Position numbers and translations under genes: made by a program. A DNA stretch of 64,000 nucleotides, from IMG/VR virus record IMGVR_UViG_3300039159_000198; one strand, written 5' to 3'. Shown here in pieces: positions 1,930 through 58,413 of this stretch; the stretch's first letter is position 1, and each line of letters opens with the position of its first letter. The notes under the pieces were generated by a model. The model was not told where the DNA came from. It worked only from the letters and a program-made list of their open reading frames with translations, and did not search any database. Source of the DNA: a virus (lineage: Duplodnaviria; Heunggongvirae; Uroviricota; Caudoviricetes).

Positions 1930-2316
1930 TTATAAATCACTTTTAATTTTTAAAATTTCGTCTTTAGATACTTGTGTTACAATTCTAGTTAAAAAGTCAT
2001 CCAAATAATAATCATCACCAATAATATTTAATATCGGCATTTGTTTTTTTCTGATGTAGGTCATATCCTCAAATTCGGAGGTATCGGTTTTGGAGTTATA
2101 TGAAAATTCAGCGGTTGATGTTGCGGTTTTTGTAAACATATCATCTTTTTCTTTTGGAGTGAATTTAATAGTAATTGTTATAATATAATTTGGTTTGCGT
2201 CCCAAGAAACTCGACGATACATCCATATCGTAATTACGTAAAATAATTCTTTCCACATAATGATTATTGGGGTTTAATAGGTGATTATATTGAGATTCTG
2301 TTATAATGTATTTCAT
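1930..2316 (-). CDS. hypothetical protein, ITE-leader family (N-terminus MKYIITESQYNHLL)
   Basis: shares the conserved N-terminal leader with >=11 other genes in the window. Confidence 0.5.
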   Translation of the reverse strand: MKYIITESQYNHLLNPNNHYVERIILRNYDMDVSSSFLGRKPNYIITITIKFTPKEKDDMFTKTATSTAEFSYNSKTDTSEFEDMTYIRKKQMPILNIIGDDYYLDDFLTRIVTQVSKDEILKIKSDL

Positions 2317-3350
2317 ATTTTAAAATGTATTTTACCAGTAACATTTACGATTTTTCTTATTTGTTGTTTGGAATGTGTTTTGGAGATTGGAGTATCTGTT
2401 AAATCCAAATAACCTCCAACTGAGGTTAAATTCCCGAGGGATTCAATATTGGTATTCAATAAATCCACCCATCCTCCAACTGAAGTTAAATTCCCAAGTG
2501 ATTTAATATTGGTGTTATTTAAATCCAAATCACCTCCAACTGAGGTTAAATTCCCAAGTGATTCAATATTGGTATTCCTTAAATCCAAATCACCTCCAAC
2601 TGAGGTTAAATTCCCAAGTGATTTAATATTGGTGTTATTTAAACCCAAATAACCTCCAACTGAGGTTAAATTCCCGAGGGATTCAATATTGGAATTCCTT
2701 AATGCCAAATGGTTACCAACTGAATTTAAATTTCCAAGGGATTCAATATTGGTATCCCTTAAATCCAAATCACCTCCAACTGAAGTTAAATTCCCAAGTG
2801 ATTTAATATTGGTGTTATTTAAACCCAAATAACCTCCAACTGAATTTAAATTTCCAAGGGATTCAATATTGGTATTCCTTAAATCCAAATCACCTCCAAC
2901 TGAGGTTAAATTTCCAAGGGATTCAATATTGGTATCCCTTAAATCCAAATCACCTCCAACTGAGGTTAAATTCCCGAGGGATTCAATATTGGTATTCCTT
3001 AAATCCAAATCACCTCCAACTGAGGTTAAATTCCCAAGTGATTTAATATTGGTGTTATTTAAACCCAAATCACCTCCAACTGAGGTTAAATTCCCGAGGG
3101 ATTCAATATTGGCATTCCTTAATGCCAAATGGTTACCAACTGAAGTTAAATTTCCAAGTGATTTAATATTGGTATTCCTTAAATCCAACTCACCTCCAAC
3201 AGAATATAATGGATAACCTCTTTTCTTTAAAAAAAGTTGTAATGATTCCCAATCATTATTGAACATTTCCATGTTAGGGATGTGTAAGATTTCAGGTTTC
3301 TCATTCTCTGTAATTAACTTACATTGAGATTCTGTTATAATGTATTTCAT
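2313..3350 (-). CDS. leucine-rich repeat protein with ITE-leader (MKYIITESQ); ~14 near-identical 20-aa LRR units
   Basis: protein repeats LGNLTSVGGDLDLRNTNIES. The DNA shows a 60-bp near-perfect tandem repeat, since each 60-nt sequence line begins aaatccaaat. Confidence 0.75.
   Translation of the reverse strand: MKYIITESQCKLITENEKPEILHIPNMEMFNNDWESLQLFLKKRGYPLYSVGGELDLRNTNIKSLGNLTSVGNHLALRNANIESLGNLTSVGGDLGLNNTNIKSLGNLTSVGGDLDLRNTNIESLGNLTSVGGDLDLRDTNIESLGNLTSVGGDLDLRNTNIESLGNLNSVGGYLGLNNTNIKSLGNLTSVGGDLDLRDTNIESLGNLNSVGNHLALRNSNIESLGNLTSVGGYLGLNNTNIKSLGNLTSVGGDLDLRNTNIESLGNLTSVGGDLDLNNTNIKSLGNLTSVGGWVDLLNTNIESLGNLTSVGGYLDLTDTPISKTHSKQQIRKIVNVTGKIHFKI
2400..3200. repeat. 60-bp tandem repeat array (~13-14 units) encoding LRR units
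   Basis: the period is 60 bp and the units are >90% identical. The repeat lies inside the CDS 2313..3350. Confidence 0.9.
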
Positions 3351-3407
3351 ATTAAATAAATATAAGGGGTTGGGGAATTAACTCATAGTTTATTGATAGA
3401 TTTGTTA

Positions 3408-3728
3408 TTATCTAATGTTTTCCCATCTTTTGTCTCCGGAAATTAAATCAGTATGGGTTGTCACTCCCAATTTGAATTGTTTCTCCACCCATTCCTTTGT
3501 TAAGACCTGTATTTCCTTGTATTCTAACCCAAAAAAGGATTCCAAAAATGACCAAAGTTTATCGTAAGAGATTAAAACACATCCATTTATTATATTGTAA
3601 TAAAAAATAAAATTACCATCTTTCATAAACAATATGAGGTCTTTCCATATATCCGCTTCATAAATGGTAAGTCCCGAATATTCTTCATTCAGGTATTTAA
3701 TTATCCTATGTTTTAATTTATCTGTCAT
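3408..3728 (-). CDS. hypothetical protein (106 aa); a paralog copy is truncated at the window start
   Basis: long ORF. Most of the gene is duplicated at 60..370. Confidence 0.5.
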   Translation of the reverse strand: MTDKLKHRIIKYLNEEYSGLTIYEADIWKDLILFMKDGNFIFYYNIINGCVLISYDKLWSFLESFFGLEYKEIQVLTKEWVEKQFKLGVTTHTDLISGDKRWENIR

Positions 3729-3802
3729 AAGAGCAAAGATAAGAATAATAAATGAATATCCAAATAGTTTTTTATTCCATATAATTCTACTATCTTTTCA
3801 AG

Positions 3803-4174
3803 ATGAAAATAGATAGAGAAAAAGTTTATTTAAAATGTGATAAAAGATGTGCTTATTGTGGAAAAGAAATCACCTTAAAACAGATGCAGGTGGACCACAA
3901 GGAACCCATCTTCAGGAACTATACGGATGATGAATTAAAACGATATAACCGAGGGCGGGGAACAAATGATATGGATAATCTATTACCAAGTTGCGCGAGA
4001 TGTAATAGATGGAAGAGCACATACACTATTGAACAATTCAGAAAAGAAATATCCCTTCAAATAGAAAGATTAAATAACCACAATAATAATTACAGGATGG
4101 ATAAGGATTATAATTTAGTTACGGAGACAAATAACCCTGTGGTATTCTATTATGAAAAAGGGTCGGGGATTTGA
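3803..4174 (+). CDS. HNH endonuclease
   Basis: CAYCGKEITLKQMQVDHKEPIF ... NLLPSCARCNRWK gives the Cys-pair, DH and N...CxxCN elements of an HNH domain. Confidence 0.75.
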   Translation: MKIDREKVYLKCDKRCAYCGKEITLKQMQVDHKEPIFRNYTDDELKRYNRGRGTNDMDNLLPSCARCNRWKSTYTIEQFRKEISLQIERLNNHNNNYRMDKDYNLVTETNNPVVFYYEKGSGI

Positions 4175-4200
4175 ACGACCCGGACATACGGAGAGATTGG

Positions 4201-10409: not shown

Positions 10410-10742
10410 ATGGATAGAGTGGAAGAAATCGATTATAATTATTTGAATTCGATATATGATGGTTATAAAAAATCCGGAAGGCGACCTGTTAGTTACGCAG
10501 GTGATTACAACGAGGTTTATTATTCTTATGAAAAAGATGGTGATAAGGCATTCGAATATAGTTGGGTTGATGGGGAGATTAAAATTAAAAACTCGGATTA
10601 TAATACAATACGAAATATGTTTGGTTTAGGCACTAGTCAAATTTTGAAAATCTATAAACAATTTGTTTTTGATAAAGTGGGTGATAAAAGGATTTTTAAT
10701 ACAAATACCCCTTTCGAACTTCAACTAACGCTCGCTTGGTAA
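10410..10742 (+). CDS. hypothetical protein
   Basis: ORF. Confidence 0.45.
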   Translation: MDRVEEIDYNYLNSIYDGYKKSGRRPVSYAGDYNEVYYSYEKDGDKAFEYSWVDGEIKIKNSDYNTIRNMFGLGTSQILKIYKQFVFDKVGDKRIFNTNTPFELQLTLAW

Positions 10743-10743: not shown

Positions 10744-11022
10744 ATGAAAATAGTGATTACAGAATCTCAAAATGACCGAATAATTAAGTTAATGAAACAA
10801 CTTGGGAATGATTATACAGATTCTGAAGGAAGAATATTAAAAACGGATATTGAAGTTGAATATCTACCCGAAAGAGAATTATATATGATTTACCCAATAT
10901 TTTATGTCAAAAGTAGAAAAGAACTTCCGTATAATTTTTATAAACATGTCTTATCCCAACGACTTGAAGATTATTTTGGTGTTTCAGTTCATACTGCAGC
11001 TGCGAGAGTTAAAGTAATTTAA
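10744..11022 (+). CDS. hypothetical protein, ITE-leader family (MKIVITESQNDRII)
   Basis: conserved N-terminal leader. Confidence 0.5.
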   Translation: MKIVITESQNDRIIKLMKQLGNDYTDSEGRILKTDIEVEYLPERELYMIYPIFYVKSRKELPYNFYKHVLSQRLEDYFGVSVHTAAARVKVI

Positions 11023-11885: not shown

Positions 11886-12251
11886 ATGAGAATTATTAAA
11901 TTAACAGAAAATGACCTAACCCATTTAATTAAAAGGGTAATTATGGAAACCAAGGAAAATTCTATTGAATATAGAGTTGAACATTTGGGTACCTTATATG
12001 GTCAAGATGACTATGAATTGGGGGCTTATGTTAATAATGAAATAATTGGACTTATTGAGTACGTAATTTTTGAGGAGATAATCACGATAAAAAATATATT
12101 AGTGAGACCTGAATATAGAAGAAAAGGTTTTGGTTCCAAGATGATACAGTATTTAAAACAAAATCATCCGGAAGCAACATACAAACCATCCATTAAAACT
12201 GATTTGGGTGTTAAATTCAAACATAAACATCACGATAATATATTTATTTAA
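11886..12251 (+). CDS. GNAT family N-acetyltransferase
   Basis: ILVRPEYRRKGFGSKMIQYL matches the acetyl-CoA binding motif A (R/Q-x-x-G-x-G/A). Confidence 0.6.
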   Translation: MRIIKLTENDLTHLIKRVIMETKENSIEYRVEHLGTLYGQDDYELGAYVNNEIIGLIEYVIFEEIITIKNILVRPEYRRKGFGSKMIQYLKQNHPEATYKPSIKTDLGVKFKHKHHDNIFI

Positions 12252-12252: not shown

Positions 12253-12630
12253 ATGAGATACGTAATTACAAAAGACCAATTTCACAAGGTTATTTATAGT
12301 ATCCTTGATGGTATTGTTAAAGACGGTAGAATCGTTAAGGAAAACAACCCATATTCAAGTACAGGAGGGTATGATATTGCTTTATATGATGGTGATACCA
12401 ATAATGAAGACAATATAGTTCTACAATATTATTATTTCCCATCTGATGATGACGAATATGATGGTTATAGTGAAGAACGTGGGAAATTACATGTCAATTT
12501 TAAATTAGATAATAAACTAAAAAACCTTCTATCTATTAGACAATCAAAAATATTAGATATTATTGGAGATTGGGTTAGTGATAAATTTAACGTTGATGTT
12601 GATGAGGTTGTAATATATCCAAATATATAA
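12253..12630 (+). CDS. hypothetical protein, ITE-leader family variant (MRYVITKDQFHKVI)
   Basis: leader-like N-terminus with K replacing E. Confidence 0.45.
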   Translation: MRYVITKDQFHKVIYSILDGIVKDGRIVKENNPYSSTGGYDIALYDGDTNNEDNIVLQYYYFPSDDDEYDGYSEERGKLHVNFKLDNKLKNLLSIRQSKILDIIGDWVSDKFNVDVDEVVIYPNI

Positions 12631-12634: not shown

Positions 12635-13627
12635 ATGAAGAAATACGTAATAACAGAAGAACAATACGATAGATTAGTAAATCTAAACGGAATCAAACTT
12701 AAAACTGAATCCACTAAAGAAATTGATGAGGATTTAGGGAAATGGTTTAAGGAAAAATGGGTTGACGTTAGTAAAAAAGTTGATGGGAAACATCCTCCTT
12801 GTGGGAGAAAAGATGCCAATGGTAAGGCGTATCCAAAATGTCGTCCATCAAAAAAAGTGTCCAAAGAAACTCCTAAACTGGCGTCGTCATATAGTAAAGA
12901 TGAAAAAAAATCTATGACCCAACAAAAAAGAAGAGCAGAAAAGAATGACCCAAAGATTGGGAAAGGGAATAAACCAACTATAACTAAATTTGATGAGGGT
13001 ATTATAAAAAGTCCTTATAGAATATTAGTTGAAAATTTATCACCAACAATACGTAGAAGATTACCATTTGATAATTTTGAAAATGATTTAGAGTGGGGTA
13101 TCCTTGATGAGATGAACCCATGTGATTTTGACAAAATCGGGGAATTCATCTCTGAAGCTTGTGATAGATTGAAAGATATGTATCTTGACGATGTTCTTGA
13201 CTCAACAATAGCGTCCGCAAAAGATAAAGATGAACTTTATTATTATTTTGTTGATAGATTTTCAAATTATTTGGTTAAAGAATATAAAAGAAGATGTGGA
13301 GTTATGAATGAAAACGATGTTGAAGATAGTTTTTATGGTTCAGTTGAAGAAACCAATTTTGTTGTTGGTAACTTATTAATGGAAGCCGAATATCAAGGAA
13401 AAAAAGTTACCCTTAATAAACCATTTTATACCCCTGATGGTCCTAAAAAACGTTCGGTATATGTTAAAAATGGAAAAGGGAATGTTGTAAAGGTTAATTT
13501 TGGTGACCCTAATATGAAAATTAAAAAAAGTAGCCCATCTCATCGTAAATCTTTTAGAGCAAGACATAATTGTCAAAATCCGGGACCAAAGGATTCTGCG
13601 AAATACTGGAGCTGCAGGGCGTGGTGA
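12635..13627 (+). CDS. hypothetical protein, ITE-leader family (MKKYVITEEQYDRLVNL), 330 aa
   Basis: conserved leader. The protein is basic and lysine-rich in its central part. Confidence 0.55.
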   Translation: MKKYVITEEQYDRLVNLNGIKLKTESTKEIDEDLGKWFKEKWVDVSKKVDGKHPPCGRKDANGKAYPKCRPSKKVSKETPKLASSYSKDEKKSMTQQKRRAEKNDPKIGKGNKPTITKFDEGIIKSPYRILVENLSPTIRRRLPFDNFENDLEWGILDEMNPCDFDKIGEFISEACDRLKDMYLDDVLDSTIASAKDKDELYYYFVDRFSNYLVKEYKRRCGVMNENDVEDSFYGSVEETNFVVGNLLMEAEYQGKKVTLNKPFYTPDGPKKRSVYVKNGKGNVVKVNFGDPNMKIKKSSPSHRKSFRARHNCQNPGPKDSAKYWSCRAW

Positions 13628-18279: not shown

Positions 18280-18716
18280 ATAAAAAAAAATAAAAAAAAT
18301 GGAAACTGACAATTTGGATGAATTAACCACACGATATAATAGTATTTATAGTCAATTATGGAGTGATAGATTACTGAGAGTGTTAATGTCATTTGAAGGA
18401 AATGGTAATCTTTGTAGTGAAATAGAATTACCCAAGAAAAAAAAATCAGAAAAACCAAAATTTAATCAAACAAAAAAATAACCCTTTAATTAAGGGTTTT
18501 TTTAATTATACCTCTATTTATAAATATGGAATACACTATTGATAACGAATCCAAGACACTAACAGTTTTAAGTAATGGTGGTGGTATTGGAGAAATAAAA
18601 ACATTAATGGAAACATTTAAGGGGTATACTCTCTTAACTGGACCTCAAAAAGAAAAAAAAGAATGTGTTTGTAACCCTAAAAAGGGTGGAGACGGCATTT
18701 GTAAATGCGATTAACA

Positions 18717-21462: not shown

Positions 21463-21465
21463 CAT

Positions 21466-47026: not shown

Positions 47027-47773
47027 CTATTTTCGTTTAAGAATTTCTTTTTCATAATAGTCATCAAAACCAACCATCATATCTGTCATTGATTGATTTT
47101 TCTCAAGACCAACAATTTTATCAATTAACCCAAATTCAAGTGCTTCGTCCGAATTAAACCATTTATCGTTTCTTGATGATTCAAGCATCTCATCAAAGGT
47201 TTTACCACAGTTCTCCGCTAATATTTTAAATAATAAATAATTATACTTTTCAGCTTCAAGTTGACCAATTCTGGTATCTTGAACATTTCCAGTAGTTCCG
47301 TGTGATACCATGTGAGTCATTACTTTTGAATAAATCAAAGAAGACCTTTTACCTTTAGTACCTGAAGATAGTAATACTGAACCCATAGACGCACACATAC
47401 CAATATTGGTTGTTGCAACATCAGCAGTAATAAAGTTCATGGTATCTCTAATACCTAACCCACTCAATACACTTCCTCCGGGTGTTTGTAAGTACAAGTT
47501 GATGTCTTTTTTCTTATTCAAATTATCCAAGAAAATAAGTTGAGATTGGATAATATCACCCATTCTGTCATCAACGGGACCTGAAGCCCATAGAATTCTA
47601 TCCATCATAAGTCTTGAAAAAATATCCATTTGTGTAACCCTCATTTCTCTTTCTTCCAAAATGTATGGAGTCATGGAGTTTTGAATATGGTTATTAAAGT
47701 TGTGTAAATCCAACGACGGTTTACCTAAATGTTTTGTGTAATAACTTTGAAATTCTTGTCCTATGTTCATCAT
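47027..47773 (-). CDS. clpP: ClpP-family serine protease
   Basis: catalytic Ser context GMCASMGS, His context MTHMVSHG and Asp context NSDEALEFGLIDKI. A minus-strand promoter box lies at ~47785. Confidence 0.85.
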   Translation of the reverse strand: MMNIGQEFQSYYTKHLGKPSLDLHNFNNHIQNSMTPYILEEREMRVTQMDIFSRLMMDRILWASGPVDDRMGDIIQSQLIFLDNLNKKKDINLYLQTPGGSVLSGLGIRDTMNFITADVATTNIGMCASMGSVLLSSGTKGKRSSLIYSKVMTHMVSHGTTGNVQDTRIGQLEAEKYNYLLFKILAENCGKTFDEMLESSRNDKWFNSDEALEFGLIDKIVGLEKNQSMTDMMVGFDDYYEKEILKRK

Positions 47774-49039: not shown

Positions 49040-49127
49040 GGAGAGTGAAGCAGTGCCATGGAGGTGCGACTAGTCTTGAAAACTAGGTCCCGTTCATTCG
49101 GGTGGGGTTCGAGTCCTCCGCTCTCCG
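49040..49127 (+). tRNA. tRNA-Ser (anticodon TGA), class II
   Basis: 7-bp acceptor GGAGAGT/GCTCTCC, anticodon stem CTAGT/ACTAG with loop CTTGAAA, long variable arm CCCG-ttcatt-CGGG, T-loop TTCGAGT. Confidence 0.75.
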
Positions 49128-49309
49128 CGGGTTAGTTAATATTTTATTCTACACCCAAAATAGAAGGCAGTCCGGAGTGACTGATGATGAACGTAATTGT
49201 GGTAATCGTTCTTTAACTAAAAATATCTTACCTGTTCGTATAAAAGTGGTACACTTGTCTTTGACACAAGCGGAAGAGGAGCGTTACCTCTACAGGTTAC
49301 AAAAAATAG

Positions 49310-49391
49310 GGTCAGATGCTAGAGTGGTTAAATAGGTTAGTCTGCAAAACTAATGACATCGTCATCGTCGGTTCGAATCCGACTCTGACCT
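49310..49391 (+). tRNA. tRNA with anticodon GCA (Cys) and an unusual 13-nt variable region
   Basis: acceptor GGTCAGA/TCTGACC, anticodon stem TTAGT/ACTAA with loop CTGCAAA, T-arm GTCGG-TTCGAAT-CCGAC, variable region TGACATCGTCATC. Confidence 0.5.
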
Positions 49392-49398
49392 CAAAAAA

Positions 49399-49470
49399 CG
49401 GGGTGTATTCTCGGAGTGAGAAGCCTGCCTTGGACGCAGGAAGCGGGAAGTGCAACTCTTCTCACCCCGA
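49399..49470 (+). tRNA. tRNA-Pro (anticodon TGG)
   Basis: C1-G72 acceptor CGGGGTG/CACCCCG, D-stem TTCT/AGAA, anticodon stem CCTGC/GCAGG with loop CTTGGAC, T-loop TGCAACT. Confidence 0.6.
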
Positions 49471-49540
49471 CTATTATTAGTCGTAATAAAAATATTTGGT
49501 TCAAATACGACTTTTACGACATATGAATATATTTATATAT

Positions 49541-50074
49541 ATGGAAGAAATTATTAAAAATTGTAAAACAATATCTGAGGCGGTTAGAAATACTCTTGGA
49601 TATGATAATGGTAGAACTAGAAAAAAATTTTTGTCTATTGTTGAAGAACAAAACTTGGATATTACACATTTAAGGTCTAAATCCTTTTTATATGAAAGGG
49701 TTATTAAAAAATGTCCTGTATGTGGTAAAGAATTTGAGGATTTAGTTGGACACCAAAAACAAAAAACAACTTGTTCATATTCTTGTTCTAATACATATTT
49801 TAGAAGTGGGACATCAAACCCCAATTGGAAAAATGATAGTTATAGGTCAACTTGTTTTGATAATCATAAAAAGGAATGTATAATTTGTGGTGAAAATAAA
49901 ATTGTGGCGGTACACCACTATGATGAAAATAGAAATAATAATAAATCAGAAAATTTAATTCCATTGTGCCCAACACACCATCAATATGTACATTCAAGAT
50001 ATAAAAGTGAAGTTATAGGAACAATAAACAAATATCGTGAAGAATTTATAACAAAAAATAATTTGACTTCGTAA
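49541..50074 (+). CDS. HNH endonuclease inserted between tRNA genes
   Basis: CPVCGKE...CIICGENKIVAVHHYDENRNNNKSENLIPLCPTHHQYVH (HNH motif). The start was moved to MEEIIKN. Confidence 0.7.
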   Translation: MEEIIKNCKTISEAVRNTLGYDNGRTRKKFLSIVEEQNLDITHLRSKSFLYERVIKKCPVCGKEFEDLVGHQKQKTTCSYSCSNTYFRSGTSNPNWKNDSYRSTCFDNHKKECIICGENKIVAVHHYDENRNNNKSENLIPLCPTHHQYVHSRYKSEVIGTINKYREEFITKNNLTS

Positions 50075-50077
50075 CTC

Positions 50078-50165
50078 AGTTGGTATATTACCAAACTTTT
50101 AGTTTGGGAATCACACATTCTCGACGAAGGGTTCGGTGGAAACCCAAGAATAGATGATGAATCTA
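50078..50165 (+). ncRNA. tRNA-like remnant (canonical D-loop AGTTGGTA and a TTT-anticodon stem-loop CCAAA-CTTTTAG-TTTGG) lacking a foldable D-stem and T-arm
   Basis: CTTCGT...ACGAAG acceptor-like pairing but no canonical T-arm, so likely a degenerate tRNA-Lys. Confidence 0.3.
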
Positions 50166-50308
50166 TGTCCACCACATTCTCCCTTGAAACATTAAGGTGA
50201 TGTACTAAACTTTTAATTTAGGAAAACAGGGTCAGTACCTGTCAGGGGAACGAGGAGACTGTTATTAATTCATAGTCCTGATGGAGAAGGAATCATAGAA
50301 TTAAATTT

Positions 50309-50379
50309 ACCTCGTTGGCGTAATAGAAGCGTATTTGTCTTACATACAAATGGAGGTGGAGCGTAACCATCACGAGGTA
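50309..50379 (+). tRNA. tRNA-Val-like (anticodon TAC) with non-canonical T-loop AGCGTAA
   Basis: acceptor ACCTCGT/ACGAGGT, D-stem GCGT/GCGT (G-U pairs), anticodon stem TTTGT/ACAAA with loop CTTACAT, T-arm GGTGG-AGCGTAA-CCATC. Confidence 0.45.
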
Positions 50380-50384
50380 CAAAA

Positions 50385-50458
50385 GGGAACAACAGGCAAG
50401 GTGCCGAGCAGGTCTGTAAAACCTCACTGGGTTGGTTCGATTCCAACTGTTCCCACCA
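50385..50458 (+). tRNA. tRNA-Tyr-like (anticodon GTA) with genomically encoded CCA
   Basis: acceptor GGGAACA/TGTTCCC followed by ACCA, perfect T-arm GTTGG-TTCGATT-CCAAC, anticodon loop CTGTAAA on a 4-bp stem AGGT/ACCT, weak D-arm. Confidence 0.5.
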
Positions 50459-50507
50459 ATAATTAAAACACACTTGAACATTTTAATTAGTCGGTATATT
50501 TATAGGT

Positions 50508-50984
50508 ATGGGAGACATATACATAACAAAAGACCAATTGCTTAAAAAGATGAAAGTAACTGAACAATCTGAAAAGAAGGGTGAAGATAAATCACCTGAA
50601 CTAACCGAAACAGGTAACATAGGTAATTTAATTTCAACATTATTACATTCAAGAAACCAAGCACATGTATTTCATTGGCAAACAAAATCAAACTCATCTT
50701 TTGCCGAACATATGGCATTAGGGGGATATTATGATGGGATTGTTGAACTAATGGATGGACTTGTGGAAAGTTACCAAGGAAAACACGACATTATCACAGG
50801 TTATAACTCTTCAAAACTTGAGGATTATAAAGGTGTTGAACAATTAATTTCGTACTTTAAATCAATAGATTCTCAAATTGAGAAAGACCGAAAAAGTGTT
50901 AAAGAATCATACCTTCAAAATCAAATCGATACCATTCAGGAATTGATTTATTCTACGTTGTATAAATTAAGATTTTTAAAATAA
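50508..50984 (+). CDS. Dps/ferritin-like DNA-binding protein
   Basis: IGNLISTLLHSRNQAHVFHWQTKSNSSFAEHMALGGYYDGIVELMDGLVES matches the Dps helix A/B pattern (L..LL...H..HW...G..F...H......E..D.L.E). Confidence 0.5.
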   Translation: MGDIYITKDQLLKKMKVTEQSEKKGEDKSPELTETGNIGNLISTLLHSRNQAHVFHWQTKSNSSFAEHMALGGYYDGIVELMDGLVESYQGKHDIITGYNSSKLEDYKGVEQLISYFKSIDSQIEKDRKSVKESYLQNQIDTIQELIYSTLYKLRFLK

Positions 50985-51048
50985 GAGAATAGTGTTTTCA
51001 TACTAATCCCTCTGATTAAAAGTCGGGGGGATTTTTTTTATAAAAAAG

Positions 51049-51079
51049 TTTGGTGGAATGAAAAAAAGTATTATCTTTG
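51049..51079 (+). promoter_or_regulatory. Bacteroidetes-type promoter (TTTG / TATCTTTG) for the tRNA-Phe array
   Basis: TTTGgtggaatgaaaaaaagtatTATCTTTG, 32 nt upstream of tRNA-Phe. Confidence 0.55.
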
Positions 51080-51110
51080 TACTCACAAAAGAAAACAATT
51101 ATCATTATTT

Positions 51111-51182
51111 GGTACTGTAGCTCAGGGGTAGAGCACTTGGTTGAAGCCCAAGGTGTCGTTGGTTCGATTCCAACCAGTACCA
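51111..51182 (+). tRNA. tRNA-Phe (anticodon GAA)
   Basis: acceptor GGTACTG/CAGTACC, D-arm GCTC-AGGGGTA-GAGC, anticodon stem CTTGG/CCAAG with loop TTGAAGC, T-arm GTTGG-TTCGATT-CCAAC. Confidence 0.8.
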
Positions 51183-51258
51183 CGGAGTCCCGAAATAACG
51201 GGAAACCCCCACTCCCATATGGCAGCCGGTCCGTTAAGCCGGTGAAGTGGGGTAAAAT

Positions 51259-51332
51259 TGGTCTGAAGCTTATACAGTAAAGTACTCGACTGTTAATCGA
51301 GATTCTTGCAGGTGCAAATCCTGTCAGACCAG
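51259..51332 (+). tRNA. tRNA-Asn (anticodon GTT)
   Basis: U1-A72 acceptor TGGTCTG/CAGACCA, D-stem GCTT/AAGT, anticodon stem CTCGA/TCGAG with loop CTGTTAA, T-loop TGCAAAT. Confidence 0.65.
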
Positions 51333-51463
51333 CAAACAAGGAAACAACCCCTGAGTTGGTAAGGCCTTACCCGGACTCAAGAGAAGTAAAGTTACCAAAT
51401 GGGTGCGTAACGCCTTGGACTACAACGGGCTTCATAGAGGTATAAATAGTTGTAGTCAAAATT

Positions 51464-51535
51464 GCTTCTATAGTAGAATGGTAAGCACGCATTCCTGATA
51501 AGAATGAAAAGAAGGTTTGATTCCTTCTAGAAGTA
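51464..51535 (+). tRNA. tRNA-Ile (anticodon GAT)
   Basis: acceptor GCTTCTA/TAGAAGT, anticodon stem CATTC/GAATG with loop CTGATAA, T-arm GAAGG-TTTGATT-CCTTC, weak D-stem. Confidence 0.65.
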
Positions 51536-51548
51536 CAAAATAATATAT

Positions 51549-51622
51549 GGTGATTGTAGCTGAATTGGTAAAGCGTCTGATTGTGGTTCAGGAGATTGTG
51601 GGTTCGAGTCCCATCTTTCACA
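51549..51622 (+). tRNA. tRNA-His-like (anticodon GTG) with extra 5' G and imperfect acceptor
   Basis: anticodon stem TCTGA/TCAGG with loop TTGTGGT, T-arm GTGGG-TTCGAGT-CCCAT, acceptor G-GTGATTG/CTTTCAC with two U-U mismatches. Confidence 0.45.
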
Positions 51623-51847
51623 CGACATCTCCCAAAGGGAGAAGGTCCTGGTCAGAGATTTATTCTTGCAAAGGCAATACCTAAAGTTGCCCGTCTAATC
51701 TACGGGATTAGTTAAAAAGAGAGACAGTAAATCTGTAGTTAAAAGGTAGAGTGTATTAATAGACGAAAAAGGGTTTGGAGTAGTCTGACGTCACCCATCG
51801 CATTTAACCATAAACCCCGAAAGACCCGAAACGTCTCTCTTTATTTT

Positions 51848-51919
51848 ATTTCTATAGTTCAACGGATAGAACAATTGACTACGAATCAATAGATGGTGGT
51901 TCGAATCCATCTAGAAATA
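51848..51919 (+). tRNA. tRNA-Arg (anticodon ACG)
   Basis: acceptor ATTTCTA/TAGAAAT, D-arm GTTC-AACGGATA-GAAC, anticodon stem ATTGA/TCAAT with loop CTACGAA, T-arm GGTGG-TTCGAAT-CCATC. Confidence 0.7.
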
Positions 51920-51928
51920 CTAACATAC

Positions 51929-51990
51929 GGGTCGCAGACAAGGTGTCGGTCAGGTCTCTAAAACCTCGACGGCTTGTTCTAAAAATTGGA
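51929..51990 (+). pseudogene. half-tRNA pseudogene paralogous to the 50385 tRNA; anticodon loop CTCTAAA (CUA, amber-reading)
   Basis: GGGTCGCAGACAAGGTGTCGGTCAGGTCTCTAAAACCTCG aligns with GGGAACAACAGGCAAGGTGCCGAGCAGGTCTGTAAAACCTCA, but the 3' half (T-arm and acceptor) is absent and is overlapped by tRNA-Ser(GCT). Confidence 0.4.
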
Positions 51991-52074
51991 GAATAGATTA
52001 ATATTGGTTCGTGATGGCATCCTGCTAAGATGTTCCGGGTAAAACCGGTGAGGGTTCGATTCCCTCGTTCTCCG
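51988..52074 (+). tRNA. tRNA-Ser (anticodon GCT), class II
   Basis: acceptor GGAGAAT/GTTCTCC, anticodon stem GCATC/GATGT with loop CTGCTAA, long variable arm CCGG-gtaaaa-CCGG, T-arm GAGGG-TTCGATT-CCCTC. Confidence 0.7.
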
Positions 52075-52343
52075 CAAAAACCTGGTCCCCGCCCTCACAA
52101 TGTGTCTAAGGAACACAGGAGCTGAAAGTACAATCGGGGCGAATGTGGTGGGACACTTTAAAATCTTAGGTACAACGATAAGTTAGCGGGTTCTTATCAA
52201 CTGCCGAGGGGTCAAGGACCAAGGACGGCTCATATCCGACCTTAGAATGGAGCATTACCATTTCTCGGTACAAAATTTCTTAAATATTTCTTTGTCAATT
52301 CAAAACTTATCCATACCTTTGTCGAAATTAAAAACAAAGAAAT

Positions 52344-53186
52344 ATGAATAAGTTAAAAGTAATGTTTAAGGAGAATTGGAAATCAATATTGTTTTCTTAT
52401 TCTTTATTCACAATCAATTCAATATTAATGGTTATGTATCCCAAAGTATTGGGTAATTCCATCGACCACTTAATTGCCAAAGATTATTCTTACATTTGGT
52501 ATTTAATTTCTACATTCGTGGCAATCATGTTTTTTGGGTATATCAGTAGAATTTACGACACCAAGGTATTCTCCGGAATTTATAGACGATTTGCGTCAAA
52601 GGAAACACATAATCAACTTGAGAATGATGTCGATACGAGTAAGGTTAATGGTAGATTAACTCTGATGAACCGTATTGTTAGTTTCTTTGAGCACGATATG
52701 TTGGTGGTATTACAGACAATCATTGGAATCATTGGAGCCGTTTATTTCTTGGCGTTGGTGAGTTTACCAATAGTTGGGTTTTTAATCATCACAACAATTT
52801 TAATCTTGGGAGCCACATCATATTATTCACCAAGAATTGCTCAAATCACCAGTCTTTATAATGACTTGTCTGAAGAACAAACGGATATTGTCTCCACAAG
52901 AAATATATCGGGAATCAATAATTTATTAAAACGAGGACAGAAATTGTCTCTTAAATTATCATCAATTGACGCGAAGTTTTCAATTTGGATTCAGGCAATC
53001 GTGTATGGTAGTGTAACGTCTTTATTAACATATTATGTTATGTATAATAATGTTACGGTCGGGAGTGTATTTTCAACATATCGGTATATGTTTGATTTTT
53101 GTAATGCGCTTCTTGGTGTCCCAACTATCATCACATCATACATCAACATTAAAGATGTTATTAAAAGATTAGAAACCGAAAATTAA
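52344..53186 (+). CDS. polytopic membrane protein (resembles an ABC-exporter transmembrane domain without an ATPase)
   Basis: multiple hydrophobic helices and a promoter box TACCTTTG at ~52316. Confidence 0.4.
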   Translation: MNKLKVMFKENWKSILFSYSLFTINSILMVMYPKVLGNSIDHLIAKDYSYIWYLISTFVAIMFFGYISRIYDTKVFSGIYRRFASKETHNQLENDVDTSKVNGRLTLMNRIVSFFEHDMLVVLQTIIGIIGAVYFLALVSLPIVGFLIITTILILGATSYYSPRIAQITSLYNDLSEEQTDIVSTRNISGINNLLKRGQKLSLKLSSIDAKFSIWIQAIVYGSVTSLLTYYVMYNNVTVGSVFSTYRYMFDFCNALLGVPTIITSYINIKDVIKRLETEN

Positions 53187-53234
53187 TTTGGTGAATTAAA
53201 AAACATTTATTACCTTTGTAAAAAAATAAACGAT

Positions 53235-53561
53235 ATGATATTAGAGAAAGAATTATTGGACTTTACAAATTGGTTATACGATAACAATTGGAGATTAATC
53301 GGTGATGGTATGTGTTTGAATACCAAAACAAAAGATGTGTCTAAAATTAACGAATTGGTGGTCCGAAGTAAGACCTTGGAAAATTATGCCCCACAAAAAT
53401 TTCAAATTGGAGAAACGGTTAGAATCGTTGAGAATGGTGATGAGGTATCAATCGTGAATGTTAAATGGAACAAATACGATAACGAATATAAATATTGGTA
53501 CGAGGACGAAGAAGGTAATGATTGGTATGGTTATCACGATGAGTTTGAATCAATATCATGA
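53235..53561 (+). CDS. hypothetical protein
   Basis: ORF with a promoter box TACCTTTG at ~53210. Confidence 0.45.
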   Translation: MILEKELLDFTNWLYDNNWRLIGDGMCLNTKTKDVSKINELVVRSKTLENYAPQKFQIGETVRIVENGDEVSIVNVKWNKYDNEYKYWYEDEEGNDWYGYHDEFESIS

Positions 53562-53666
53562 TTAAAAAAATTATCTTTATTTTATCCCTGATATGGGATA
53601 AAATTAGAATGAAACGGAAAAGCAAGTGGGATTTATAAAATAAATAAAATAAATAAAATAAAATAT

Positions 53667-54938
53667 ATGGAACAACATAAAGACATTTTCTATATTATCT
53701 CAAAAGAAAACGATAGACAAGTTAGAGGCATTGAACTAATCGCTTCGGAGAATTACACGAGTGATGAGGTTATGAGAGCGGCGGGTTCGTGTTTAACAAA
53801 CAAGTATGCCGAAGGATATCCGGGTAAAAGATATTATGGTGGTTGTGAGGTTGTTGATGTAATTGAACAAATAGCGATTGATAATGCTAAAAAATTATTT
53901 GGAGCGGAATACGCAAATGTTCAACCTCATTCCGGGTCACAGGCAAATACTGCAGTATTTCATGCTTGTTTAAACGTGGGTGATAAAATATTGGGTTTTG
54001 ATTTATCTCACGGAGGACATTTAACACACGGTTCACCGGTAAATTTTTCCGGTAAATTATACACATCAAGTTTTTATGGAGTGGAGGAGAATGGGGAATT
54101 TGACTATGATAAAATTCAAGAAATAGCAACCAAAGAACAACCAAAATTAATCATTGCTGGTGCGTCTGCTTATTGTCGTGATATGGATTTTAAACGTTTT
54201 AGAGAAATTGCAGATTCAGTTGGAGCGATATTATTGGCCGACATCTCACACCCTTCTGGTTTAATTGTGTCAGGACTGATGAATAATCCAGTTCCACACT
54301 GTCATATAGTTACAACAACCACACATAAAACATTACGTGGACCAAGAGGTGGTTTAATTATTATGGGTGAGGATTTTCCAAATCCAATGGGGATAAAAAC
54401 ACCTAAAGGAGAACTGAAAATGATGTCAAATTTATTAGACCTAGCAGTATTCCCGGGCAATCAAGGTGGTCCATTAATGCACATAATTGCTGCCAAAGCA
54501 ATCGCCTTTGAACAATGTTTAAGTAATGATTTTTACGAATATTCGGTACAAGTTCAAAAAAACGCTAAAGCAATTGCTGAATCATTTACTAAAAGAGGTT
54601 ATAATTTAATCTCTAATGGAACTGATAATCATATGATTCTAATTGACCTTAGAAATAAAGGAATTACAGGTAAAGAAGCGGAAGAAGTGTTGGGTAAGGC
54701 GGACATTACAGTAAATAAAAATATGGTACCCTTTGATGATAAATCACCTTTTATCACATCCGGTATTAGAATTGGAACACCTGCCGTTACCACAAGAGGA
54801 TTAGTGGAAGAAGATATGGAAAGTATTGTTTCTTTTATTGATACTCTATTAGTTAGACGTAATGATGACTTTATTATTGATAGTGTAAAAAGAGGTGTAA
54901 ATGAATGGATGAGTACAAAACCAATATTTAACAAATAA
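53667..54938 (+). CDS. glyA: serine hydroxymethyltransferase
   Basis: 423 aa with the PLP-lysine region [17 protein letters not shown] and [12 protein letters not shown], both diagnostic SHMT blocks. Confidence 0.9.
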
Positions 54939-54954
54939 AAAAAAAACAAATGAA

Positions 54955-55179
54955 ATGGTTGAGGGGTGGTATAAGGGTTTCTGTAGGAACAATTATGTCG
55001 CTTATTGGGATGGAGAAAAGTTCCAACACCTCCGGTATAAATTCGGATTCATGTTGGACACAATAGAACATTTTGAGGATGTTAAAGAGAAACGATTAGA
55101 TGGGTTTGTTCCGGTTGAGAGAATTGAAAGATTGGCTCCGGATGAGCAATGGAAAATTAAAGATGAAATAGGATATTAA
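54955..55179 (+). CDS. hypothetical protein
   Basis: ORF. Confidence 0.4.
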   Translation: MVEGWYKGFCRNNYVAYWDGEKFQHLRYKFGFMLDTIEHFEDVKEKRLDGFVPVERIERLAPDEQWKIKDEIGY

Positions 55180-55180
55180 G

Positions 55181-55780
55181 ATGATAGATAATTTAGAAGT
55201 AATAAAACCATTATTGAATTTGTCCGAAAAGGGGGATTTTTATTCTTTAATGATTTTAAAGAGAAAGAAAGACCAACCGGAAGGTGAGAGAGATAATCAT
55301 CAGTCGGTTAGAACAATCAAAACATATTGTATTGATAGTATTGACCATCTTGAAAAAAGATACAATGAAATCAAACAAGTATGTGAGATGTTTAAAGCAA
55401 GAGCATACATCCACGTACAGAAACAAAACCATAGTGATGTTTCATTGGATATGTTGGCATTACTTGCTGAGAGAATCAAAAATGGTGTGAAAAACCAAAA
55501 AGGTTTATTTGATTCAGTTGTGGGTCAAATTAAAACACACGAGAAAAGATGGATTATTGATGTTGATACAAAGGACAAACAATTCCTGAGAGACATTACA
55601 ATGGATTTGATGGAGATTCAACCGGTGGGGAATAAAGTTGAAAAAGTAATCCCAACCAAAAACGGATTTCATTTGATTACTTGTAAGTTTAATGTGATGG
55701 AGTTTAAGGAAAAGTATCCGGACGTAGAAATCCATAAAAAAAATCCGACTTTGTTGTTTTTACCGAATAGTTTAGAATAA
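55181..55780 (+). CDS. hypothetical protein
   Basis: ORF. Confidence 0.5.
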   Translation: MIDNLEVIKPLLNLSEKGDFYSLMILKRKKDQPEGERDNHQSVRTIKTYCIDSIDHLEKRYNEIKQVCEMFKARAYIHVQKQNHSDVSLDMLALLAERIKNGVKNQKGLFDSVVGQIKTHEKRWIIDVDTKDKQFLRDITMDLMEIQPVGNKVEKVIPTKNGFHLITCKFNVMEFKEKYPDVEIHKKNPTLLFLPNSLE

Positions 55781-55854
55781 AATTAAACCCCCTCTACGTA
55801 ACGAAAGCGCTACGACACGTACTATCTGGCAGGTCAGGTGGGGGGTTTTTAAAC

Positions 55855-55937
55855 AGTCAGGTGGCGGAATTGGTATATGCATAACTATAAGGTTGAAAGC
55901 GATTGTTATTTTACAGGTTCGAATCCTGTCCTGACTA
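55855..55937 (+). tRNA. tRNA-like gene X1 (Leu/Tyr-type D-arm GGCGGAATTGGTA, canonical T-arm ACAGG-TTCGAAT-CCTGT) with non-canonical anticodon region
   Basis: acceptor AGTCAGG/CCTGACT. The only 5-bp stem in the middle (ATAAC/GTTAT) encloses a 19-nt loop. It is a paralog of X2 and X3. Confidence 0.4.
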
Positions 55938-55949
55938 CAAGTATTAAAT

Positions 55950-56264
55950 ATGAATATAGATTTATTTAGACATTGGATTCCTGATTTAAGACAAACAAAG
56001 AACAAGAATGCTTATGTTGCAAAGCAATGTCCTTTCTGTCCAAGAACACCACATTCAAAATCATTTAGAATTAATCTTAAACTCAAAGTTTGGAAATGTT
56101 ATCAATGCGGTAGAGGTGGTAAAAATTTTAATAAATTTGTTCATTATTTAAAAGGTAGGGACTACAGAAGAAATAGTATTAAATACTTGAAGAGAATAGG
56201 TCGTCAACCAATGAGTATTCCTATTGTGGTTCAATACGGATGTGAAAGTTCATTACCGTTTTGA
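55950..56264 (+). CDS. zinc-ribbon hypothetical protein
   Basis: CPFCPR...CYQCGRGG. Confidence 0.4.
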   Translation: MNIDLFRHWIPDLRQTKNKNAYVAKQCPFCPRTPHSKSFRINLKLKVWKCYQCGRGGKNFNKFVHYLKGRDYRRNSIKYLKRIGRQPMSIPIVVQYGCESSLPF

Positions 56265-56307
56265 CGTACAACCCGTGAGATAGAAAGACGAATAAGCGGG
56301 TTAAATT

Positions 56308-56397
56308 GGTCAGGTAGTTTAATGGTAGAACAGCTAGATGACTCAGATACTGATTCTGATAATATTGCTTATACAGGTTCGAATCCTGTTCTGACTA
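56308..56397 (+). tRNA. tRNA-like gene X2 (class-II length, same T-arm as X1 and X3), anticodon unresolved
   Basis: acceptor GGTCAGG/TCTGACT (two G-U pairs), D-arm GTT-taatggtaga-AAC, candidate anticodon stem TCAGA/TCTGA with loop TACTGAT (no U33). Confidence 0.4.
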
Positions 56398-56743
56398 CAA
56401 ATAAAGTTCAAAATAAATAAAGATTGGGTTCATTTTATGATGATTATGAGCCCGATTTTACGTATATTTGAGCCATAAAATAAAATTAACTATGAAAAAA
56501 CAATTTGATATGCTTTGAGGTCTACTCAACAATAGACTGAAAAGTTATGAGTATAAATGTAAACAGAGCCAAGTTCAATAAAGAGACTTGTTCAAAAGAT
56601 TACAAAAGAATTTTATTAGACGAATTATACCCGATGTATTGGGATGAGGGTCTAAATTTCATACACGGTCATTCGGCTTCAAAATACAGAAGTCACAAAA
56701 CGTGGAAATACAATAGAAAAACACAATATAAAGAATAGGAATA

Positions 56744-57247: not shown

Positions 57248-57254
57248 AGAATAA

Positions 57255-57403
57255 GGTCAGGTGGCGGAATGGTAGACGATAAAGTGGGTTACCCTTAGAG
57301 TAAAACCTATCATATATAAAATAAAGGCAGTTTACTGCTTATGATAGTCATTGGTAAATTTGAAAATGTTACTCAATTACAGGTTCGAATCCTGTCCTGA
57401 CCA
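57255..57403 (+). tRNA. tRNA-like gene X3 with ~70-nt internal insertion (intron-like or expanded arm)
   Basis: 5' GGTCAGGTGGCGGAATGGTAGACG and 3' ACAGGTTCGAATCCTGTCCTGACCA are typical tRNA ends. The interior contains an 8-bp hairpin CTATCATA/TATGATAG. Confidence 0.35.
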
Positions 57404-57620
57404 CAAAATTTAAGAATTTGATAGTTCCCGGTGATAATCGCCGTTATCTAAGACAATGATAAATAAAAACAGACATATAACTTGCGTCAGTGGTAAATGA
57501 ATGTGAGGTTCGGAATAGTCAACCAAACCAAGAGACCGCCGAGGGTAAACACAGGGATGACCCCTGTCCACCCCCCAAGATGAAATATCGGAAAATCATT
57601 CTGTCTGTTTTTTTTACATG

Positions 57621-57693
57621 GATATTGAATCACAATTGGACGTGCGACCGGTGTAAGGCCGGGAGGATATAGGTTCGAACCCTATCAATATCC
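57621..57693 (+). tRNA. tRNA-like gene, candidate anticodon TAA (Leu) on a CCGG/CCGG stem
   Basis: acceptor GATATTG/CAATATC, T-arm ATAGG-TTCGAAC-CCTAT, D-stem CAC/GTG, anticodon loop TGTAAGG with G at position 33. Confidence 0.4.
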
Positions 57694-57734
57694 CAAAAAT
57701 TAAACTTTTTTTTTAATCACGTATATTTATTAAC

Positions 57735-58028
57735 GTGAAAAAATTTATAATCACAGAAGAAGAAAAAGATGAAATATTGTCAAAATATAATCTAATAAAA
57801 GAACCGGACAATAACTTTTTGAAATTTAGATACTCAGGAAATGAGTTCCCAACGGATGAAATGAGGGAATGGTTTCGTAATAAGGTTGAGTATATGGATG
57901 AATGGGATGAATTAGATAGAGATTTACAGATGGACATTGTTAGAAATAATTTTTTTGATGTTTTCCACGATGAACTATCTGATTTAAGTTATATGGAAAT
58001 GTTAGATGTTTTTAATAAATGTTATTAA
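57735..58028 (+). CDS. hypothetical protein, ITE-leader family (MKKFIITEEEKDEIL)
   Basis: leader motif. It is a tandem paralog of 58030..58413. Confidence 0.5.
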   Translation: MKKFIITEEEKDEILSKYNLIKEPDNNFLKFRYSGNEFPTDEMREWFRNKVEYMDEWDELDRDLQMDIVRNNFFDVFHDELSDLSYMEMLDVFNKCY

Positions 58029-58029
58029 T

Positions 58030-58413
58030 ATGAAAAAATTTATAATCACCGAAGAAGAAAAAGACAACATATTAGGTCAATATAAAGAAGTAAAAGATAC
58101 TCCAATAGATAGACGAATGTTAGATATTGATTTAACACCAATGACTATGGCAAAAATTAAATCCAAAGGATTAACACCATATTATATTGAAGGGACTAAT
58201 TTAATTGAATTATCCAGTCATATAAAAAATTCTAAAGTAACTTTTGGACTACACAGACCAACTGAAGTATTTTTATTCTCTCAGGATGATTATGAGAAAA
58301 TTAAAAAAATGTCTGATAACATTAATGAGATGATTGAAGTTAAAAAGAAACAAATTGAGTTGTATAAACAATACATTCCGGCGGTTGCAATAGAACTTAC
58401 AAATAAAAAATAA
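58030..58413 (+). CDS. hypothetical protein, ITE-leader family (MKKFIITEEEKDNIL)
   Basis: leader motif. The start was moved to the second ATG. Confidence 0.5.
   Translation: MKKFIITEEEKDNILGQYKEVKDTPIDRRMLDIDLTPMTMAKIKSKGLTPYYIEGTNLIELSSHIKNSKVTFGLHRPTEVFLFSQDDYEKIKKMSDNINEMIEVKKKQIELYKQYIPAVAIELTNKK

Follow-up and report, generated by a model that had tools for sequence, protein, structure and literature searches.

A conserved N-terminal leader on otherwise unrelated proteins of an uncultured jumbo phage lineage, a candidate virion-targeting tag

A leader shared by unrelated proteins

We identified a conserved N-terminal leader peptide on a set of otherwise unrelated proteins encoded in a 64,000-nucleotide stretch of tailed-phage DNA (IMG/VR record IMGVR_UViG_3300039159_000198; 31% G+C, 119 called genes), hereafter the window. 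The family consists of 10 intact genes and two truncated copies, and its members in the window begin M-K-x-[IV]-I-T-E-[SE]-Q. A hidden Markov model (HMM) of the 18 N-terminal residues finds 12 matches scoring 18.9–29.9 bits in the six-frame translation of the whole window, and the next best match scores 6.6 bits. Among the 119 called genes, 12 have the tripeptide [IL]TE in their first 12 residues, compared with 1.4 expected from its rate elsewhere in the same proteins. When the first 22 residues are trimmed, no pair of members matches by BLASTP with E below 0.6. Pfam assigns the members unrelated domains (leucine-rich repeats (LRR), DUF5872) or none, and the leader itself is covered by no Pfam or PHROGs family. 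Both parts of the original prediction, a common leader and otherwise unrelated carriers, are borne out by the gap in HMM score and by the best trimmed E-value of 0.6.

The consensus is M-K-[IYL]-I-I-T-E-S-Q-[YLF]-x-x-[LI]-[ILF]-x. The conserved stretch covers about 15 residues; position 10 is aromatic or hydrophobic, position 13 is leucine or isoleucine, and position 15 is glutamate in about a third of members. I-T-E is found in about 95% of members and is the same tripeptide as at the processing site of T4 Alt (ITE-6), although a three-residue match is weak evidence. It had been described as invariant, which is not so, as the protein encoded at 12253 has I-T-K.

On the minus strand, a 345-residue protein (2313–3350) begins MKYIITESQCKLIT and continues as an LRR solenoid (Pfam Recep_L/LRR); the heptamer TATTTAT lies at 3356–3362, 5 nt before its ATG. 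The second gene of the same unit, 1930–2316(−), encodes 128 residues beginning MKYIITESQYNHLL (HMM, 23.1–29.9 bits). The 92-residue product of 10744–11022(+), also recognized by the HMM, begins MKIVITESQNDRII. This gene starts 1 nt past the stop codon of 10410–10742, which has TATTTAT 4–5 nt before its ATG. Its orthologue in L069 begins MKVIITEEQNERII (L-numbers are labels of compared loci outside the window), and a homologue search returned one protein only. The gene at 12253–12630(+) encodes 125 residues beginning MRYVITKDQFH, with lysine in place of glutamate, and has TATTTAT at 12241–12247. Immediately downstream, 12635–13627(+) encodes a 330-residue protein in which a single leader precedes three modules (DUF5872, an 'RRRLPF' module and an HVA1-like module).

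The 166-residue product of 23199–23699(+) begins MGTKRFTITESETESIKKLY, so that its leader (MGTKRFTITESE) is offset by four residues, and TATTTAT is found at 23188–23194; its orthologues begin MKRVRLTESDLIKVIKRV (L003) or carry a degenerate leader (L022, L061). The HMM also recognizes 34039–34659(−), which encodes 206 residues beginning MEFLITESQLKTIL (MEFLITESQ) followed by hydrophobic, membrane-like segments, and whose orthologues in L003, L023 and L061 retain the leader. Two tandem leaders occur in the 325-residue product of 45281–46258(+), MKFNITETDIKNIL at residue 1 and MKKKIITEQ at residue 20 (nt 45338). The last two members form a unit. The first gene, 57735–58028(+), has a GTG start and TATTTAT at 57724–57730 and encodes 97 residues beginning (M)KKFIITEEEKDEIL; the second, 58030–58413(+), encodes 127 residues beginning MKKFIITEEEKDNIL and is matched by the HMM.

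Degenerate copies had been noted near 18717 and 21466. Both are real, and both are disrupted or truncated. The gene at 18716–18994(+), beginning MKYIITETQYNNLI, has an in-frame TGA at codon 15 (18758), after which the frame is open to 18994. The copy at 21464–21517(+), MKYIITESKLNHIQMV, runs for 16 codons before two stops, with a possible frameshifted continuation to 21684; intact MKYIITESKLNEVIK proteins are found in L009, L066 and L075. These are likely recent pseudogenes or assembly errors. Stop-codon recoding at 18758 was rejected because TGA is the stop of 12 of 69 genes.

Looser resemblance to the leader is seen in three further genes, at 11886, 20500 and 50508. A glucosaminidase-like protein (20500–21189(+), beginning MGKKIKVRLTEQELIDLI, with TATTTAT at 20489–20495) and the product of 50508–50984(+) (MGDIYITKDQLLKKM, with TATTTAT at 50497–50503) are possible divergent members that score below the HMM threshold. 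The gene at 11886 was set aside as a GNAT enzyme with an N-terminus that may be just the usual β1-α1 of that fold.

The codon usage of the leader was compared across 110 non-redundant relatives. All synonymous codons are found at K2, I4, I5, T6, E7, S8 and Q9, with a mild N-terminal bias, and the conserved positions of the window members themselves use ATT/ATA/ATC, ACA/ACG/ACT/ACC, GAA/GAG and TCT/TCA. Because every synonymous codon is used, the leader is conserved at the protein level. Conservation of the DNA alone, named beforehand as the outcome that would speak against a peptide signal, is not seen, as synonymous codons vary at the conserved positions. Among 10 orthologues of the protein encoded at 12253, which are 45–57% identical, MRYVITKDQFH hardly varies, with 9 of 11 columns identical.

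The tag is strictly N-terminal. An HMM lacking the Met-Lys has 220 matches of at least 12 bits in 1.02 Mb, approximately 214 of which have a methionine 1–4 residues upstream, and only two or three are internal. The leader also decays once a fusion makes it internal. The modules of the fusion protein 12635–13627 are three separate leader-bearing genes in other loci (L024, L004, L045, L044, L069, L120). At the first junction the leader sequence ITESQYVLLTE is changed to IIKSPYRILVE, which retains the hydrophobic positions but none of T, E and Q, and at the second the third leader is wholly lost. The HVA1-like body domain occurs without a leader in Pelagibacter, Roseobacter and Kyanoviridae phages; in the 40 kb of phage C48C1 examined, a homologue of the body domain has no leader, and no leader-HMM match exceeds 6.5 bits.

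In an AlphaFold2 model of the protein encoded at 12253 (predicted local distance difference test score, pLDDT, 78.7) residues 1–6 are coil and residues 7–24 form a helix packed into the fold, with no strand. This model is consistent with T-E-S-Q acting as a helix N-cap and first turn. Foldseek found no significant match to it in the PDB. In a single-sequence model of the LRR protein at 2313, the solenoid is predicted with a pLDDT of about 90 and residues 1–20 with less than 50, the leader thus being modeled as a low-confidence appendage to a confident solenoid. Features of Sec, Tat or lipoprotein signals are absent: only three hydrophobic residues precede T-E-S-Q, where such signals have a core of about 10 or more, and there is neither an RR pair nor a cysteine lipobox. 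Column counts show no conserved GG after the leader, unlike in a double-glycine leader, which has a Gly-Gly processing site 15–30 residues from the N-terminus. A ribbon-helix-helix N-terminus, a dimer-forming β-strand and two helices of about 45 residues, was also rejected, as the conservation ends at about 15 residues, the models give one long helix and no strand (12253) or disorder (2313), and there is no match to a Pfam family of this fold.

Expression, distribution and cargo

In 39% of leader genes the motif (A)TATTTAT precedes the ATG by 4–6 nt, compared with 13.5% of the other genes in the same loci (approximately 3-fold). The reverse is true of TAnnTTTG, which we take to be the Bacteroidota −7 promoter element; it lies upstream of 2.5% of leader genes and 13% of others (an approximately 5-fold depletion). 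(A)TATTTAT has two preferred distances from the ATG, 4–6 nt and about 13–17 nt. The same motif (ATATTTAT, AATATTTAT block) is conserved approximately 33 nt upstream of the tail-sheath genes of four different phages (L008, L013, L034, L094). The leader genes of the window carry TATTTAT or directly follow a gene that does, for example in the units 3350→2316, 10410→10744, 11886→12253→12635 and 57735→58030. Other genes behind the AATATTTAT block encode endolysins, peptidases, homing endonucleases and a sigma factor.

The ATATTTAT/(A)TATTTAT motif is probably a late (or middle/late) phage promoter. Since the leader genes lie mostly behind a motif common to sheath genes, and rarely behind TAnnTTTG, they too are probably expressed late. 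A spacing of 4–6 nt implies transcripts starting at or beside the AUG, and many transcripts of leader genes would thus have almost no untranslated leader. The peptide would be no mere requirement of such transcripts, because at this promoter spacing 163 distinct non-leader genes show unrelated N-termini.

A degenerate DNA pattern encoding M-K-x-I-I-T-E-S-Q was found in at least 120 IMG/VR loci, compared with a single locus for a control with the same codons in scrambled order. All 139 matches listed begin open reading frames (ORFs) or reach the end of the locus; the ORFs are mostly of 60–510 residues, and three stop after 14–24 codons. The matches listed lie in DNA of 27–36% G+C, many of them in contigs of 100–320 kb. 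Across 596 Gb of bacterial and archaeal genomes (GTDB) the pattern has just seven matches, most of which look like the same family on small contigs of metagenome-assembled genomes (MAGs) or on a 205 kb 'Flavobacterium' MAG contig; two of the seven are on Flavobacterium MAG contigs. No leader-HMM match of 10 bits or more was found in 1.0 Mb of T4-like Flavobacterium phage loci that are equally AT-rich (34% G+C). The leader is virus-specific. One chromosomal locus, in a Candidatus Binatia genome (L125; OZ246887.1, locus position 3985), has a 15-codon leader remnant, MKVIITESQLMYLLH, followed by a stop. It lies within a 5.7 Mb bacterial chromosome in a stretch of locally low G+C (36%) and may be a degraded phage-derived insertion.

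Searches of described sequences and literature returned little. No nucleotide match to 25 kb of the window was found among the 50,697 deposited phage genomes of INPHARED. A tblastn search of that collection with a 23-residue consensus leader gave no match, a query perhaps too short for significance, or the isolates may be without the leader. A 40-column leader profile run against 5.8 billion proteins gave 223 candidates and nine weak, uninformative matches. The leader was not found in 50 kb each of the 735 kb huge phage LR756501, which has the best match to an RNA ligase of the window, and of Flavobacterium phage immuto. By tblastn, gp20, gp21, gp23 and the terminase of immuto have no match in the leader loci. 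A literature search for the leader peptide strings found nothing relevant. Without a Pfam or PHROGs family or a match in the deposited phages of INPHARED, the leader family is an undescribed one.

Many genes of the window have homologues of 35–92% identity in leader-bearing loci, and the window and these loci therefore form one lineage. Genes for a tail sheath of 1192 residues (phrog_23), a tube, a baseplate hub and a head-tail adaptor are present in some of the leader loci. At least 600 relatives of the sheath exist in IMG/VR; its best match among the deposited phages of INPHARED is only 30% identical. The leader thus marks an abundant, uncultured, low-GC lineage of jumbo myophages. The sheath encoded at L034:10003–13578 and its relatives are unusually long (approximately 1190 residues), and only the C-terminal third matches known sheath families.

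TAnnTTTG lies upstream of 16 genes of the window, compared with 3.6 in shuffled sequence. The form TA(T/C)CTTTGTAAAAA, which fits this pattern, is located 16–34 nt upstream of the genes at 9021, 9999, 26696(−), 28416(−), 47027(−), 48274, 52344, 53235 and 60844(−), and for several genes the distance to the ATG is 16–22 nt. From their promoters, these genes are a probable early class read by the host polymerase, and they include a ClpP homologue, a metallophosphoesterase and an ABC-membrane-like protein. The ClpP-family protease (47027–47773(−); CLP_protease, 2e-49; phrog_94) has the host-type motif TATCTTTGTAAAAAA upstream. TAnnTTTG-type motifs together with the matches on Flavobacterium MAG contigs make a host among the Flavobacteriia plausible. 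The virus had been called a Bacteroidetes phage, and a host of that type is in keeping with both observations but is not established by them.

The cargo of the 110 relatives includes 13 different Pfam families. T4-type lysozymes (five, some with LysM or SH3-like tails), proteins like gp82 of mycobacteriophage L5 (five) and sigma-70 family factors (three) are represented, along with LysM, LRR and zinc finger proteins and a DnaI_N match. The remainder of the window encodes two RNA ligases, serine hydroxymethyltransferase, an SPFH protein, the ClpP homologue, a peptidoglycan-binding glycosidase, many HNH and GIY-YIG homing endonucleases, a cyclophilin, a non-specific nuclease, a GNAT enzyme and an RNA-repair HAD domain. 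Searches with Pfam and PHROGs found neither capsid, portal, terminase nor tail genes in the window, which marks it as an accessory, hyperplastic part of a large phage. A protein identical to one of the window is recorded on a JGI contig of 293 kb.

Candidate functions of the leader

A portable, position-dependent and sequence-constrained N-terminal tag calls for a common reader, and we consider it very probable that the leader is read by one specific partner. The tag would consist of an exposed hexapeptide, M-K-x-I-I-T, and the capped start of an amphipathic helix, E-S-Q-aromatic-x-x-L-L. Purifying selection appears stronger on the tag than on its cargo, as would be expected if one shared partner reads it sequence-specifically. 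A tag better conserved than its carriers, on hundreds of unrelated proteins, points to one undescribed shared machinery.

Our tentative proposal is that the leader is a late-expressed N-terminal tag for targeting to the prohead or virion, with processing at ITE. In the accessory regions of the jumbo myophage lineage, over 10% of the genes would bear this tag. The position of the ATATTTAT motif suggests that the tagged genes would be transcribed mainly from this late-type promoter, often with almost no 5' untranslated region. The most likely partner would be the assembling prohead core together with its maturation protease. By analogy with T4, the tag would direct cargo such as peptidoglycan hydrolases, sigma factors, LRR and membrane-active proteins to the interior of the head, would be clipped after I-T-E as in the MELITE of Alt, and the cargo would be delivered with the DNA into the next host.

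A cleavable capsid-targeting leader is plausible because ITE is the site at which T4 Alt is processed. The analogy with T4 made in the original prediction is apt, since Alt is cut at ITE-6 with the loss of six residues (PMC5694885) and capsid-targeting sequences (CTSs) are N-terminal propeptides of 10–20 residues on diverse internal proteins (PMC5694885, PMC3012670). In the giant phage SPN3US an identical 15-residue N-terminus is present on the diverged ejection proteins gp53 and gp54 (PMC5694885, PMC3012670). Like the CTSs of IPI, IPII and IPIII and the N-terminal propeptide of Alt, which the prohead protease gp21 processes, the leader is a short peptide at the extreme N-terminus of unrelated, fast-evolving proteins of hyperplastic regions. 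Its approximately 15 residues fall within the CTS range, it starts with methionine and a charged residue followed by hydrophobic ones, and in about 95% of members it includes the tripeptide after which Alt is cut. The leader genes, like those of the T4 internal proteins, appear from their promoters to be late. Both kinds of phage have a contractile tail, and the C-terminal domain of the sheath in the leader lineage is about 30% identical to gp18-type sheaths. One leader gene directly follows the head-tail adaptor gene in three loci (L217, L218, L250). Circumstantial support also comes from the strict N-terminality of the tag, from its decay on becoming internal and from its association with the motif found upstream of the sheath genes.

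Several observations weigh against this proposal. The ITK of the 12253 orthogroup is invariant and offers no glutamate at the proposed site, so that there would be no Glu-specific cleavage there. In T4 the motif ends the propeptide, whereas the ITE of the leader lies midway in about 15 conserved residues. Because conservation continues for approximately eight residues past it and the modeled helix of residues 7–24 is packed into the fold, most of the conserved part would remain on the mature protein. The likeness to MELITE of Alt extends to four or five residues only. The T4 internal-protein CTS, MKTYQEFIAE, when compared by eye, has in common with the leader only an M-K start and a glutamate. 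T4 has fewer than ten capsid-targeted proteins, compared with at least 10% of the genes in the window here. The cargo, unlike that of T4, includes sigma factors and modular lysozymes; the three sigma-70 family factors and the five T4-lysozyme-like proteins, some with LysM, are normally cytoplasmic or lysis proteins, for which packaging is not needed.

The structural genes weigh on the same side. A search for the capsid genes and a T4 gp21-like protease had been suggested, but neither the window nor the 10 kb to either side of the sheath in relatives, including L218, yielded a major capsid protein, portal, scaffold or gp21-like protease; homologues of gp21, gp22 and gp23 were likewise not found there. 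Around the sheath lie genes for tube, baseplate hub, adaptor, helicase and a superoxide-dismutase fusion, with neither a capsid nor a protease gene among them, and the gene order past the sheath (tube, baseplate hub) is not T4-like. The only protease of the window is the ClpP homologue, in an accessory region with no head genes adjoining. Loci centered on the sheath contain 14 leader matches in 1.04 Mb, compared with 12 in the 64 kb of the window.

Two other systems resemble the leader in part. The phiKZ-like giant phages, including SPN3US with gp53 and gp54, are also giant myophages in which diverged paralogues keep an N-terminus of about 15 residues with x-x-E protease motifs. However, their propeptides usually have 80–130 residues, a cleavage motif of (S/A/G)-x-E and small paralogue families, and no homology of the leader to their ejection or inner-body propeptides was detected. 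In the Photorhabdus PVC, an extracellular contractile injection system, diverse effectors enter a contractile particle resembling a phage tail by means of an N-terminal signal; these payload signals have about 50 residues, are disordered and show little sequence conservation, and loading is into the tail tube of a DNA-free particle.

The leader might instead be a proteostasis tag, in which the N-terminal Met-Lys and three hydrophobic residues form a chaperone or protease docking site or a degradation signal (Hsp70, ClpXP-type); the system reading it would control the folding, holding or lifetime of a whole class of late phage proteins. A DnaK/Hsp70 homologue lies beside leader genes in four loci (L030, L048, L051, L092), genes for a ClpP homologue and a cyclophilin-type prolyl isomerase are present in the window, and strict N-terminality with an exposed, low-confidence N-terminus would fit a degron or chaperone site. 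The strictly N-terminal, Met-basic-hydrophobic pattern resembles the ClpX 'N-motif 2' reportedly described by Flynn et al. in 2003. N-terminal ClpX degron classes exist (PMC12723719). However, the most conserved residues of the leader, T6, E7 and Q9, lie beyond the hydrophobic core, and its invariant T-E-x-Q sets it apart from the ClpX N-motif degrons. Acidic residues beside a hydrophobic core are disfavored for DnaK binding. The promoter of the ClpP gene is of the host type and probably early whereas the leader genes are probably late, and there is no evident reason to make the products of more than 10% of genes unstable. We regard a proteostasis tag as unlikely. Docking to a hub outside the virion, such as the membrane, a replication or transcription factory, a scaffold or an export route, would account for a short exposed peptide under strong sequence-specific purifying selection and for the diversity of the cargo, with its sigma factors, enzymes acting on the envelope and a membrane-like protein; a hydrophobic strand that is exposed and leads into an amphipathic helix would also suit strand addition to a partner, or oligomerization among the tagged proteins by a β-strand plus helix. 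The data do not separate such a hub from prohead targeting. No candidate partner was identified, there is no known bacterial or phage system with such a tag, and for export the hydrophobic stretch is too short for Sec or Tat and lacks a Gly-Gly processing site. Docking of this kind is in our view unlikely.

Alternatively, no peptide partner may be involved, and the leader could be the coding part of a mobile cassette of late promoter and start codon that is spread by recombination and gives efficient, near-leaderless translation. The frequent TATTTAT 4–6 nt before the ATG, the leaning of positions 2, 5, 6 and 8 to A-ending or particular codons, and the clustering of members in hyperplastic regions with homing endonucleases are in line with this, and T4-type phages shuffle genes by means of conserved promoter cassettes. 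However, it is the amino acids rather than the bases that are conserved, genes with the same promoter spacing have unrelated N-termini, and operon-internal genes without a promoter of their own (2316, 10744, 12635, 58030) retain the leader. The internalized copies lose exactly T, E and Q, and translation efficiency alone hardly explains a leader more conserved than the body. We find an expression cassette improbable. The G+C content of the genome, with its abundant AAA, ATT and ATA codons, might suggest a compositional artefact, as N-termini with M-K and many isoleucines are common in AT-rich DNA. The controls refute this, and we give it practically no weight: scrambled codons gave one match against at least 120 loci, the Flavobacterium phage DNA gave none in 1.0 Mb, and the HMM scores within the window are clearly separated.

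If the leader is a capsid-targeting signal, it would extend the principle of the T4 internal proteins to a much larger and more diversified set of delivered effectors. It would also provide a simple sequence rule for predicting which 'hypothetical' proteins of these jumbo phages are carried in the virion, and a means of loading such phages with foreign proteins. A broader and rather doubtful possibility is that freshwater and marine jumbo phages carry an injected protein arsenal, made up of at least a tenth of their accessory genes and marked by one universal 'ITE' leader of 7–15 residues. Besides peptidoglycan hydrolases, LRR proteins and membrane-active proteins, it would contain sigma factors that reprogram the host RNA polymerase on entry. 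No known capsid-targeting regulon would come near it in size, and the leader would offer phages of Bacteroidota a ready-made tag for protein delivery. Should the leader prove to be a chaperone, degradation or docking tag, it would represent a code of a new kind for sorting proteins throughout a phage. The recent isolation of Flavobacterium jumbophages, among them phages of approximately 390 kb with two sigma factors (PMC13573597), makes the question directly testable.

Other features of the window and related loci

DnaK/Hsp70 homologues are encoded at L030:1237–3102, L048:8764–10632, L051:4576–6447 and L092:622–2484, and these genes are preceded by a sequence like TTGACA-N17-TATACT, not by TAnnTTTG. 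Together with the cyclophilin (19987–20421) and ClpP of the window, they make up a phage proteostasis toolkit. A protein of approximately 910 residues is encoded beside the head-tail adaptor gene at L218:3122–5851(−) and L034:3601–6333(−), with a doubled ATATTTAT motif upstream. Its residues 27–260 are a superoxide dismutase domain (approximately 35–49% identical to bacterial SodA/SodB), and a long C-terminal part of unknown nature follows.

A cluster of 11 tRNA genes occupies 49040–56398 of the window, among small ORFs, an HNH gene and the serine hydroxymethyltransferase gene; for the tRNA at 55855–55938, ARAGORN reports a two-base anticodon and no assignment. The two RNA ligases (14708–15733 and 37308–38387; Rnl2-like with a PHA02142 OB domain, and T4 Rnl1-like) are accompanied by a small ORF with a HAD_SAK_2 match. 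The ligases and this 'Swiss army knife' HAD domain suggest a tRNA or RNA repair module by the tRNA cluster.

The GIY-YIG homing endonucleases at 575–1045 and 27655–28350(−) have a common N-terminus, MAYVY-x-(Y/H)TRLD-x-NEIFYVGIG. This pair and several HNH genes point to a region rich in mobile endonucleases. At 63638–63775(−) and 63762–63965(−), two adjoining small ORFs have the N-terminus MEIGNSVKDSIRDSISEPVSGS in common, along with 32 nt of upstream sequence, a local tandem duplication.

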